Shown here: positions 1,641-56,070 of the stretch, one piece after another
Layout: each line of letters begins with the position of its first letter
Position numbering within the stretch: the stretch's first letter is position 1
The notes under the pieces: generated by a model
What the model saw: only the letters and a program-made list of their open reading frames with translations
Told to the model about the DNA's origin: nothing
The model's database searches: none
Source: Carcharhinus amblyrhynchos
Lineage: Eukaryota
Reading direction: 5' to 3'
DNA length: 64,000 nt
Assembly: GCA_965287045.1 (NCBI GenBank)
Contig: OZ336885.1
Coordinates: 62,868,001 to 62,932,000 of the forward strand
Translations under genes and position numbers: made by a program

Positions 1641-1676
1641 AATTAACCCAGTGTCAAGCAAACTTGAATAATTCAC
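1641..1676 (+). CDS. Microexon A1 (36 nt, phase 1-1): [E]LTQCQANLNNS
   Basis: ttaacctatccag|AATTAACC...AATTCAC|gtaagcatc; paralogous to five other 36-nt exons with Cys at residue 5 and Leu at 9. Confidence 0.85.
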
Positions 1677-3899
1677 GTAAGCATCCTGATGTCATTCTGC
1701 ATGAAACTCCTCAATGTAGTATTGTAATTGATTGCATTTCGAATGTGCAGTTTTATTTTTTGTACATATGCAAACTACGTTTTTTACCTGTATGTCCTGC
1801 ATAGTTAGAACATGGAAAAAAGAATTGTTATCCTCGGGAAATGGAAAATAATAATAATGACAAGAATGGATGCTGATAACGAACTGTATCCATTGTGAAC
1901 GCGTCTAGTGGTAATTTCATTCTCAGAGTTAAAACCAAGCCATTCCTTGATATCCAATATTGCACATGCAGAAGATAAGCAAACGATAAAAAAAAAACAA
2001 TTGTTTTGTTTTGATACTTGTTACCGTATTCCTTGGAGTGGAGGGGTGTGGCGTACAGGGTAAATATTTTTTTCCCAATAATTCAACATTCTTCTCGTCA
2101 ATTATAATTTATTTCCAACACTTGACATAGAAAAACGCAAGTATTAGAATCCCTGTTTATTGAAAGATAAAATCCTTGTGGTACCTATTGTTTGACACCT
2201 AAAGTGTGTACACCCATTCCAGGAAGGCGCACATTGCCCCGGGCCACATTCTGGCTTATTCTCACACCCCTGCGCATTTTTTTTCCTATGCTTTGTGACA
2301 TGTCCAATACATGATGTGGCAATATAGTGCGAAAGATCCAACAACCGAGCACATTTTTGGATTGAAGAAGGAAATCCAAAAACCGGGGAAACGCCACGCA
2401 GTCGCGGAGAGAAGGAAGAAACACCACACATTCACCCACGGCCAGAATCAACTCTGGTTCTTTCGCACAATTATGCAGAGTTAAAAAAAAAACAACGGAT
2501 AACACTTTACAAAACTAACCATCCGCAATACAGATGGTTCCAACACAGCAGTACATAGCAGGTGTTATAACCATTGTCGTTCTTGGCGAAATTAATTATT
2601 TTCTTCGGGGGTATCATAGGCTCACTTGGCGTTAGTTTAAAAATATGCCAGAAGGCAGCCTCTTCTTTTTTTAAAAAATGAAGATCATCAGGGCATAGAT
2701 TTGAAGAGCGTTGCAGCACCAACTATTCCATTCAGTTCATCATATGTTTGCCAGCGACCAGGCACCAAACTATTCCATCTCAATATTCCAGCACCCGGTC
2801 TGTAGTTTTCTATTATATTGAGCTTTAACGTCTGAGCTAAACGCTTTTGAAATATTTAAACGTTCCGTTATGTCCCATCCTTTAAGATGGCGAGGTGCAG
2901 GTCATTTGTTTAACAATGGCATTTCCCCGAAAAAATAAAACAAAGTTTCTGCCCTTTAACCTAAATTTATGCCCCATGTTTATTACCCCCTGTATTAAGG
3001 CCAAATGTGCCTTCAAATGCCTTCATGTGTCTGAACACATGATAGGTTCGGATCATTCAGCTTCCCACTTCGTCTATCTGCCCCAAGGAAGCAACGCCAT
3101 CTAAAAACAATTCTCTTCATATCTGAAACTCTCCAGAACTGGCAGTGAGGAAAAAAAAAGAATGGATACAACAAAAATTTAACAACCGTAATAGCATTAG
3201 TTGTTTTTTTTTTTAAATAGTGTTCTGACTGAGACTGAAGCACGCTGGAAAAATTGGTGAATTAATGGATTAAAACTAGAAGCAGGTCGGAGCGAGTCTC
3301 TGGTCTGTGAGCTGAGATCCGAAACTTCCTATGTTGGACAGATCACGGAAGTGGTTTACTTTAACTGAGACAGCATGGCTCTGATTGGTATGGATATTAT
3401 GTATGGGGCATGCAAGATGAACTAAGCATCATGGAGTCGTTGAAAAGTAATTTTAACTGGATGTTCGACCGATGTGACTGATTTATGGTTACTCAATTAG
3501 CCGGACGACATATAATCTTCCCGAAGCAAGTAGAGAATTGTGGATAAAAGAAGTGTGAGGTTTTTTTTTGTTTGGCAGTGATAACTTCAAGACAACGACT
3601 ATCGCAACAAGACCTTGTATCATAAAAAAAATGCTTCCGGGAGGAGAAAGTAGAATATACTTGGAGGATTTTTCTTGGCCAAGGTTTTCCTAACTCATGA
3701 GTACCTATTTTCAGCTAAATATTAAAAGTTGATGGTCAGTTGGAGTTAAAGTTCAGTAAAGGGTTAATGAGTTCCAATTGTTGATGTTTAGGTTGACACT
3801 AAACGTGTCAAATAAAGAATGAATTGAATTGCTGCGATTGTTTGCCTCGTTAAAATAGAACGCTTGGAACGTGTTTAGATTAAACATGTATAACGGTGG

Positions 3900-5070
3900 A
3901 TATTATGTTTCACCTCCTCCAGTGCGAACAAATCATTGTATAGAGTGCCGAGCAGAGCTGCGCACAGCACACTACAATGAGGCACGCTCCGAAATCATTC
4001 TGGAACCCCTTACATCCTGGAGTTCATATCATAATTTCGATAAAATTGTTTTTTTTTCCTGTTCTTCTGGCATGATGATGACCAGGACTGAATGCAATAT
4101 TAAAATGCGACCAACGCAAGTATTTGTATGTTTGCACTATATTTTACCAACTCCCATGTTCAGTGCACCGGCTGATGAATGTAAGGATTCCACATGCCTT
4201 CTTAATCACGTTGGTCACCTGCGTTGCCGCTTTTAGGGACTTCTGGGCCTGTGCTCTGAAACTCATCCAAAGGTTAATCTTCCAAAAGGTTGAGTCAATT
4301 ACAGCATAATTCACAACTAAATTAAATAGCCCGCAATGCATTACCTCACCTTCACCCAGATTAATTTCAATCTGTCTTACCTCCAGCCATGTCTGCAACC
4401 TGGTAATGCACTGTTGCGTACTGTGGCAGTCCTCAGCACTATCAACAACTCCGAAGTATTAGTATCAACCGGAATTTATATTCCGACCGTTCACACAAAC
4501 TGCGCCAGTTCGTTTAAGTATCCTCCAAATAACAAAGGTCCCCGCACTGATCGCTGAGGGACAACGTCATGTTTTGTTTTATCCAACTGTGCATGCATCC
4601 TGTCACAGTATATTTCCCAAAAGATCTCCCAGCACGATGTCAGGCTCGTCGGCATACATTTTATTGGATTATTCCTGGTTTATTTCTTAAACAAGTGAAC
4701 AAGAATGGTTATTCTTCAGTCCCCTGGAAACCCCATGCGTTCAAAATGAAAGTGAGCAATCTACTACTTCCTCAGATATTCCACCTTTGCCTTCCGATGC
4801 AGCCTGACATAGATCCCATCTGAACCCGGGCACATGTCTATATTAATGCAAATTAACATACTCATCACTTCCTGCCTTGATATTTTCACTTCTATAGAGC
4901 ATTCCGACACTTATCCCTGACCTCAACATGATCACTTCCTTCTCCTTGGTAAATACTGATGCAAGTACTCATTAAAGATTTCACGTAATTTCGGTGATTC
5001 CATGCAAACTCCCGACCACTTTTATCGAGTGGGCCTCGTATTTCTTTTGCAGCCCTCTTGCTCGCTTTTA
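3900..5070 (-). mobile_element. Old CR1 LINE ORF2 fragment
   Basis: Minus-strand KAATQVTNVIKKACGILTFISRCTEH resembles CR1 KVATQVDKVVKKAYGMLAFISRGIEY. Boundaries approximate. Confidence 0.7.
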
Positions 5071-5173
5071 TTCTGAACTGACATGAATCGAAGTTATATT
5101 TTAATCATTGATTTAATTTTGAGATCAGAAGTTGTTCCCGAAATATGTTTACCATTTCTTCTCACTTTCACAG

Positions 5174-5200
5174 AAGATACAGTATTTGATCTAAAAGTCG
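5174..5200 (+). CDS. Microexon B1 (27 nt, phase 1-1): QDTVFDLKV
   Basis: ttcttctcactttcacag|AAGATAC...AAAAGTCG|gtaagc; hydrophobic residues 4 and 7 continue the heptad register. Confidence 0.85.
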
Positions 5201-55000: not shown

Positions 55001-55170
55001 AGCACTTTTGTGAGACCGGCGGTCATTATTCAACATTGTTGTTTCGCTGGACTCAACAGGTTTGATGAATAAGCAGTTCGATCCCTTCTTGAATTCAGAG
55101 TACTGTTCGTATTCCGTTGCGTATCGGGTTCAATTCATAAATGTTGTATTAATGTGTATGTGCCAAACAG

Positions 55171-55197
55171 ATGACAGAATATGTGAAATAAAAGATG
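55171..55197 (+). CDS. Microexon B7 (27 nt): DDRICEIKD
   Basis: tgtgccaaacag|ATGACAG...AAAAGATG|gtgagt; same 3' end and donor as B4. Confidence 0.83.
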
Positions 55198-56034
55198 GTG
55201 AGTAAATGCAGAATGCCAATTGGTACGTTTTCAAAACACACGTACTCATGTTATCTCTCCCATAAACTACTTGCAATCTACTTTACATATTGTTGAATTA
55301 TTAAACTCGTTTTTAAGAACGCCATTGAACATCGATTGTGAAAAATTGGTAAAGGTCGTAATTAATATACCGTCCTCATGCAAGTAAGAACGATGGGGCT
55401 GCTACAAACAGGAGCAGAATCATGAAACAAACACACACAATTGTCACAGAAGGAACCAACTTTGGGTTAAATTAGCCTTTTGAGATAGAAGAATGAACCC
55501 TGCCTCAAATCGGAATAAATGGCTTAAGTGAAAAAAAAAAACAGAGGACCACAGCACACATCAGAAGGGAAGTTACTGTTTGACACAGGCACAAATAGAA
55601 TTGAGCAGAGTGGTGTTGGATCCGGGCTTCACTGTTGAAGCTTAAAACAGTGCACGAAAGTAAATAGTGTTCAGTTTGGCTGATTGGATCAGACTTGGTC
55701 ACAAACTGATTGTGGTTTTCAAGAAAGGATTGGATAATACTTGGGGGGTTTCTCTATGCTGTGGCAGGGAAATGTTGTTCGATTACTGGAGCGAGCGATC
55801 GTGTATATTTTCAAAACTGTGTTTTTCTGACGTTTGGAAAAGAAACAGGATTTCATTACAATTACTTTAGAAAGGTCGACTTTTACCCAAATGTTTTGCG
55901 CTCTAGTACTTAACAAGAAACGCATAGATGGCAAAACTTTCGAATCCGCGTATGGACATTAATTCCTACATTGACAAGAAAACCACGACAAGCAATAACT
56001 AAAAAAAAACTTAGATGTTTTAATTACGTTCCAG

Positions 56035-56070
56035 AATTGGCCAAGTGCCAAGAAAGTTTGAAGGACACAG
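56035..56070 (+). CDS. Microexon A6 (36 nt): ELAKCQESLKDT
   Basis: ttaattacgttccag|AATTGGCCAAGTGCCAAG...GACACAG|gtaaac; 10 of 12 residues identical to A4. Confidence 0.88.

Follow-up and report, generated by a model that had tools for sequence, protein, structure and literature searches.

Microexons of a shark locus that likely form part of an 850-kb gene for a coiled-coil protein with a B30.2 domain

Long coiled coils encoded by many tiny exons have been described for the BG genes of chicken, in which, according to the published account (PMC4046983), a tail of 13-36 exons of 21 or 24 nucleotides (nt) follows an immunoglobulin (Ig) V exon and a transmembrane exon and precedes a last exon of 3′ untranslated region. 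Butyrophilins (BTN/BTNL), as described in PMC4046983, PMC6790196 and PMC12841164, have IgV and IgC domains, a transmembrane segment, few heptads on short exons and a B30.2 last exon. We analyzed a 64,000-nt stretch of Carcharhinus amblyrhynchos chromosome C16 (positions 62,868,001-62,932,000; hereafter the window), in which an earlier note had reported a hidden gene of six 36-nt (A) and seven 27-nt (B) microexons encoding a coiled-coil repeat. These 13 exons are likely about the middle tenth of one cartilaginous-fish gene of ~850 kb, the host gene, whose last exon encodes a B30.2/SPRY domain.

The host gene resembles chicken BG, including BG10/zipper protein, in building a long coil from many tiny exons with one module each, and the shark family shares with BG a variable exon number and a multigene cluster (PMC4046983); a neighboring shark paralog also has a run of 21-nt exons. 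It differs in having ~140 exons, of which 132 of 140 are 27 or 36 nt long and three are 21 or 24 nt, in forming heptads from exon pairs and in spanning 850 kb. The many tiny coil exons of a BG tail are present, but the BG arrangement of a single IgV plus transmembrane exon with a tail lacking B30.2 was not recovered: no Ig was found, and a terminal B30.2 is present. Like butyrophilins, the gene has heptad exons (140 of 21-45 nt, hydrophobic period 3.5) ahead of a B30.2 exon; unlike them, it showed no IgV or IgC domain, and its B30.2 belongs to a clade of its own and has no Pfam PRY match.

TRIM proteins of the PRY-SPRY type, such as TRIM21, likewise place a coiled coil before B30.2. Their coil is roughly ten times shorter than that of the shark gene, which is built from microexons and is modeled as parallel in a chimaera relative; the N-terminal RING and B-box of C-IV TRIMs were found neither in the frames upstream of the array nor in the models of clade members. 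Because the searches turned up no Ig or RING and no first exon that was secure, the gene tests as neither butyrophilin nor TRIM. Bony-fish proteins of ~1,620 amino acids (aa) (KAL7387049.1, XP_033506678.1 and relatives) share a coil and a terminal B30.2 with the shark gene but form a separate B30.2 clade and carry 0-1 copies of its Cys motif. The 1,620-aa proteins (P0165-P0169) have an internally repeated coil, are unnamed or misnamed, and form a separate, possibly convergent family. Tetherin, TMCC(aT) and PLVAP, according to PMC10617486, combine a transmembrane segment and a coil with a glycosylphosphatidylinositol or short end and lie between CILP2 and PLVAP; this identity was excluded because the shark coil ends in a B30.2 exon, and a C-type-lectin neck was dropped once that exon had been found.

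The locus is apparently a giant, undescribed variant of the butyrophilin/chicken BG tail design. We found no description of the gene family or of six of its accessions in the literature searched, which lay largely outside subscription journals, and no family accession in the supplements of PMC10707392 (one unverified 55-kDa A33-like entry only) or PMC11083954.

The window exons and the array around them

All 13 exons were recovered where the earlier note had placed them, with AG immediately upstream and GT immediately downstream of each. Spliced together they give 405 nt that are stop-free in the phase-1 frame only, which bears out the claimed phase 1-1 structure, and they occupy 405 of 54,430 bases (0.74%) of the 54-kb span. 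Alternation is strict from A1 to B5, also as claimed, within the full order A B A B A B A B A B B B A. When each exon was held out of its own profile, it ranked first among ~370 AG..GT/GC sites in 12 of the 13 cases and second for B5 (41239). Full-profile scores were 48-61 for A exons and 29-43 for B exons, whereas no other site on either strand exceeded 8.5. No further exon of the window was convincingly supported: candidates of 66 nt (45616) and 18 nt (43459) are intact in three copies, which is within the decoy rate.

Iterated exon profiles were run over a contiguous 1.66 Mb that contains the window, in a genome of 2.9 Gb; in the extended numbering used below, the position on C16 is 62,868,000 plus the number given. 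A profile scan of the adjacent DNA, which the earlier note had proposed, carries the plus-strand array far beyond both ends of the window, ~650 kb upstream and ~136 kb downstream. The gene is not 13 exons in 54 kb, as first thought, but ~141 exons in ~850 kb, with the alternation regularly interrupted by B-B-B runs. Its 140 microexons comprise 51 of 36 nt, 81 of 27 nt and eight of 21-45 nt. Adjacent A exons occur five times, against a shuffled mean of 19.2 (0 of 2000 shuffles as low). Joined to the last exon, the microexons give a model of ~1,604 aa with no internal stop (the printed length of 1605 aa reflects a last acceptor placed 3 nt early); 12 of the 140 exons were added by hand, and three stop-bearing hits and one weak GC-donor hit were excluded. 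The coding fraction of the gene span is ~0.57%. Across the span of the joined model there are three stop-free antisense hits, and a length histogram of stop-free phase-1 candidates has 67 of 27 nt and 45 of 36 nt on the plus strand, compared with 7 and 3 on the opposite strand.

Table 1 Features of the window and of the host gene
Feature	Position	Strand	Support and remarks
Final copy of tandem duplication	1..57414		unit ~65 kb, ~3.4 copies, 16 microexons per full unit
A1, 36-nt phase 1-1 microexon, Leu-x-x-Cys-x-x-x-Leu	1641..1676	+	profile; copies intact at -66307, -132977
B1, 27-nt microexon	5174..5200	+	splice ends, profile, duplicate copies
A2, 36-nt microexon	6798..6833	+	splice ends, profile, copies; one duplicate in-frame 30 nt
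B2, 27-nt microexon	20709..20735	+	splice ends, profile, duplicate copies
A3, 36-nt microexon	27386..27421	+	splice ends, profile, duplicate copies
B3, 27-nt microexon	32448..32474	+	splice ends, profile, duplicate copies
A4, 36-nt microexon	35264..35299	+	splice ends, profile, copies, run X1 contigs
B4, 27-nt microexon	36777..36803	+	splice ends, profile, copies, run X1 contigs
A5, 36-nt microexon	40818..40853	+	splice ends, profile, duplicate copies
B5, 27-nt microexon	41239..41265	+	splice ends, profile, copies; weakest (leave-one-out rank 2)
B6, 27-nt microexon, middle of B-B-B run	41603..41629	+	splice ends, copies, register; shifted hydrophobic register (predicted stutter)
B7, 27-nt microexon	55171..55197	+	splice ends, profile, duplicate copies
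A6, 36-nt microexon	56035..56070	+	splice ends, profile, duplicate copies
Host gene microexon array, 140 exons	-650,470 to 195,563 (extended)	+	whole window 1..64000 inside; gene leaves both ends
Last coding exon with B30.2/SPRY and stop codon	200,075-200,595 (extended, locus L036)	+	PF00622, E 1.1e-15

The protein, which the earlier note could not recognize, is identifiable at its C-terminal end as B30.2/SPRY. The last exon has a SPRY but no PRY match in Pfam, and it matched 89 Protein Data Bank (PDB) sequences, best TRIM21 (E 7e-20) and BTN3A1 (E 9e-19). Upstream of it the joined model has a hydrophobic period of 3.50. In the window, positions 2 and 5 modulo 7 carry the hydrophobic residues from A1 up to and including the sixth B exon, after which the pattern shifts by four residues, a stutter. 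Six core a/d positions had been proposed, and four of them stand: across the family (100 A and 122 B exons) the hydrophobic share is 88% at A2, 89% at A5, 83% at A9 and 79% at B4. A12 (45%) and B7 (17%, with Lys in 57% of the 122 B exons) are seldom hydrophobic and are therefore weak as core positions. In the middle exons of B-B-B runs, position 4 is hydrophobic in only 25% (n=16), versus 85-93% in other contexts. Cysteine occupies A5 in 33 of the 51 A exons of the host gene.

Duplicate copies and relatives in other species

The array has grown by segmental duplication. The tandem duplication starts ~164 kb upstream of the window, and its copies are ~82-84% identical. Under a strict rule, length, AG/GT ends and frame are retained in 34 of 36 aligned exon copies versus 179 of 476 decoys; of the two exceptions, one is shortened to 30 nt without loss of frame and the other reflects a slipped alignment at an exon that is itself intact. 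Between duplicates, core positions changed in 31 of 142 comparisons and other positions in 112 of 341. The retained splice sites, frame and core indicate that selection holds these three features while the surface sequence drifts. Run X1, which behaves as genomic contigs from a relative that has diverged by a few percent, covers A4 and B4 with no listed splice-site change, and no exon-exon joints are listed for it.

Other features of the duplicated DNA were also observed. An A2 duplicate at extended -57,610 is 6 nt shorter, in frame and with its splice sites kept, and would shift the heptad register. Positions 57,593-64,000 of the window are a ~6.5-kb degenerate ATGG/GATG satellite with strong G skew that closes the 65-kb unit. 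At extended -608,437 to -537,641 (L142, L063-L069), a 17-18 kb cassette in three to five copies combines an A exon with an exon of 42-45 nt that bears Gly/Pro; its A copy at -607166 has a stop, and its 45-nt copy at -569778 has no GT at the usual place. The 42-45 nt exons are likely hinge exons, with decaying copies. A- and B-like stop-free exons on the minus strand within host-gene introns (154,974, 156,505 and -477,266) are possibly inverted remnants.

Gene models from other species point the same way as the duplicates. The best database match to the last exon, catshark XP_038668997.1, agrees at 76% in the B30.2 domain, also matches host microexons at 171179, 173883, 176767 and 195537, and is probably an ortholog. 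At 358 aa it is the closest public model and covers the last few microexons and the B30.2 only, in keeping with the earlier suggestion that standard gene predictors may miss the gene. Its residues 1-125 look by eye like translated repeat DNA, unlike the array, and are probably a prediction artefact. The relatives' B30.2 domains form a single cartilaginous-fish clade (Shimodaira-Hasegawa-like approximate likelihood-ratio test, SH-aLRT, 100) with members in catshark, skate, electric ray, basking shark, epaulette shark and chimaera; the tree was built by a quick method from 158 domains with a midpoint root, after removal of 10 rows that were isoforms or duplicates and of domains shorter than 120 residues. 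RefSeq models in the clade (XP_038668997.1 from catshark, XP_042192744.1 and XP_042191566-8 from chimaera, XP_055510696.1 from skate, XP_069775384-90 from electric ray, XP_078422387.1 and XP_060706632.1) are automatic predictions with unrelated names such as TRIM39-like, BTN3A1-like, A33-like, nuclear-pore anchor-like or myosin-like, and are 175-460 aa long except for the long chimaera gene.

That gene, XP_042192744.1, encodes 1,697 aa with ten copies of the Cys-bearing A motif. Two releases of it differ by 13 gaps, eight of which are of 9 or 12 residues, and in five isoform pairs four of seven gaps are of 9 residues, the sizes expected from 27- and 36-nt exons. The relatives' models, as RefSeq entries, are assumed to rest on transcripts. 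Together, duplicate-copy conservation, the B30.2 last exon and the relatives' gene models back the original proposal of a hidden coding gene with three-heptad A+B modules.

A predicted coiled-coil rod and competing explanations

We propose, with slightly better than even confidence, that a single ~850-kb gene with ~140 symmetric phase-1 microexons encodes a cytoplasmic, parallel two-chain coiled-coil rod that has an N-terminal membrane anchor and ends in B30.2/SPRY; that all exons are spliced into one transcript is what we infer. The rod would comprise ~1,430 residues. Each 36+27 pair would add three heptads, each B-B-B run would add 18 residues (7+11, a stutter), and the core A5 Cys would face its twin in the dimer. 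A coiled coil rises 0.15 nm per residue, and the rod would be ~200 nm long. A short N-terminal anchor, seen only in the chimaera model, would hold the rod and place the B30.2 pair far out in the cytoplasm, where by analogy with BG and butyrophilin tails it may serve a tethering or sensing role. In both releases the chimaera protein has a short hydrophobic stretch at its start and then a basic cluster; by the positive-inside rule, such a cluster puts the remainder in the cytoplasm, which suggests an N-terminal anchor with a cytoplasmic rod.

The parallel arrangement comes from structure prediction. Chimaera residues 392-500, modeled as two copies, scored 0.46, compared with 0.00 for the best of three controls, and the predicted dimer is parallel and in register, with at least 98% contact agreement between runs and a predicted local distance difference test (pLDDT) value of at least 84; Cys 444, 465 and 477 are among its closest predicted self-pairs. 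In a microbial set, 21 of 30 pairs but 0 of 23 single chains reached the same mark, and in a eukaryotic set 17 of 29 pairs (7 of 16 from animals) but 0 of 30 single chains did so; a coiled coil may pass because such structures are familiar to the predictor.

Several points weigh against this proposal: (i) Exon identity between duplicates is 84.0%, versus 84.1-84.5% for introns, and the ratio of nonsynonymous to synonymous rates is ~0.61 (pairs non-independent), which together indicate weak protein-level constraint; in run X1, both listed changes in A4 and B4 alter the residue. (ii) No secure first exon, anchor or signal was found for the host gene. Signal-like starts occur no more often than background: there is one candidate for the host (-699423) and one for the neighboring gene (-674155), whereas 800 kb of antisense DNA has 24 such sites. 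(iii) The chimaera N-terminus had no match in the host region, and no other relative of it appeared among 7,985 scored candidates. (iv) The dimer model is of the chimaera relative rather than of the shark gene, which is itself known here from genomic sequence and relatives' gene models. (v) An in-frame stop interrupts a well-scoring A-type exon close to the 5′ end (-607166, score 24.6), and the weak GC-donor hit at -127662 was dropped because it produced a junction stop. (vi) Introns reach 29.8 kb, so a gene boundary within the array is possible. (vii) A secreted rod linked by disulfides would account for the regular core cysteines at least as well.

Other attempts to locate the 5′ end were as follows. 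None of four candidate transmembrane exons was convincing, a translated comparison of the 5′ regions of three arrays found no shared exon, and CpG-rich spots were uninformative for locating a first exon. A signal-like stretch 2.9 Mb downstream was rejected, as it is flanked on either side by exons of a microexon array and may represent the translation of a polypyrimidine tract.

The last of the seven points leads to an alternative that is unlikely yet carries real weight, in which the same gene and rod are secreted or lumenal, with a signal peptide, and form a disulfide cross-linked fibre with a B30.2 head and a structural or mucosal role. The frequent A5 Cys and the cysteines that face their twins in the chimaera model would fit such a fibre, as would the signal-like candidate exon at -699423, the hydrophobic starts of the skate (P0154) and chimaera models, and the bony-fish 1,620-aa proteins, which by eye combine a signal-like start with a long coiled coil and B30.2. 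However, the bony-fish proteins belong to a separate clade, polypyrimidine tracts give hydrophobic starts by chance, and the basic cluster of the chimaera start points to the cytoplasm. N-glycosylation sequons do not favor secretion either, being unenriched in the host (6 versus 4.7 after shuffling) and its neighbor (7 versus 5.0) and below shuffled in the chimaera (2 versus 8.0).

It is rather improbable that the array is several genes or partly a relic, with only the 3′ part joining B30.2 and the upstream part made up of BG-like tails without B30.2 or of decaying duplicates. Such an arrangement would accommodate the stop-bearing exon, the donor lost in the 45-nt cassette copy, the long introns, the weak protein constraint and a catshark model that spans the 3′ end only. 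Against it, splice sites and frame persist in the window exons and their duplicates despite 16% divergence, the array yielded no other start or end exon, and the chimaera model runs to its full length in one piece.

A true butyrophilin or TRIM with overlooked Ig and transmembrane or RING and B-box exons is more doubtful still. In its favor, the B30.2 lies nearest TRIM21 and BTN3A1 structures, RefSeq names such as TRIM39-like and BTN3A1-like are in use for relatives, and short exons ahead of B30.2 are a butyrophilin trait (PMC6790196). Yet no Pfam match to Ig, RING or B-box was found in 139 + 101 (240) non-repeat plus-strand frames upstream of the array (with those of 55-85 aa restricted to frames containing Cys together with Trp or His) or in 76 frames upstream of the neighboring gene. 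None of the 35 genome matches to the butyrophilin-type C2 domain (PF22705) is on C16, and eight scanned clade members have SPRY with no Ig, RING or B-box family. Finally, chance AG/GT sites or repeat debris can be put aside almost entirely: AG..GT sites are many (121 and 129 stop-free on the plus strand of the window) and exon conservation is no higher than that of introns, but strand bias, copy conservation, the catshark match, the leave-one-out ranks and the joined stop-free model refute this explanation.

Paralogs and implications

Six B30.2 exons of the host subfamily lie on C16, at 60.45, 61.08, 63.07, 63.15, 63.74 and 66.44 Mb, and that of the host is the only plus-strand subfamily match between 62.2 and 66.4 Mb among 150 scored. 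A second array, on the minus strand from extended ~775,000 to 286,500 (L083-L122, L143-L154), has 101 exons that encode 1,044 residues without a stop, and ends in an exon (L084:6851-7366) with a SPRY match of E 1e-10; it converges tail to tail on the host gene. When the DNA separating these two arrays was compared, a single strong match emerged (39% over 178 residues), which is that of the two SPRY last exons. A third array starts near extended -714,000 on the minus strand, head to head with the host gene, and at -798,108 to -767,960 (L123-L126) it has a run of about nine phase-1 exons of 21 nt, the length that is classic for a BG heptad. A microexon array is present at 65.7-65.9 Mb as well (190 kb sampled). 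Elsewhere, well over a hundred other B30.2 exons are clustered on contigs C9, C41, C46, C53 and C73, and butyrophilin-type C2 domains cluster on C46 and C53.

A broader and rather speculative possibility is that these genes constitute a new cartilaginous-fish family of at least six giant genes over megabases of one chromosome, encoding 200-nm, cysteine-stapled, B30.2-tipped rods. Their two-letter exon code would use 36+27 pairs for three heptads and extra 27-nt exons for programmed stutters, exon skipping would tune length and bends, and the Ig-less coil and B30.2 module would be a living one and a possible source of butyrophilin and BG tails.

The locus brings to light a gene family of sharks, rays and chimaeras whose very large members are shortened or misnamed in public annotation. 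It extends the exon-per-module design of BG and butyrophilins to a paired 36+27 code, with an exon count about four times the BG maximum, and provides a natural setting in which to test how long microexon runs are spliced and how coiled-coil register is kept up through exon duplication. It is also relevant to how B30.2 immune receptors arose in jawed vertebrates.

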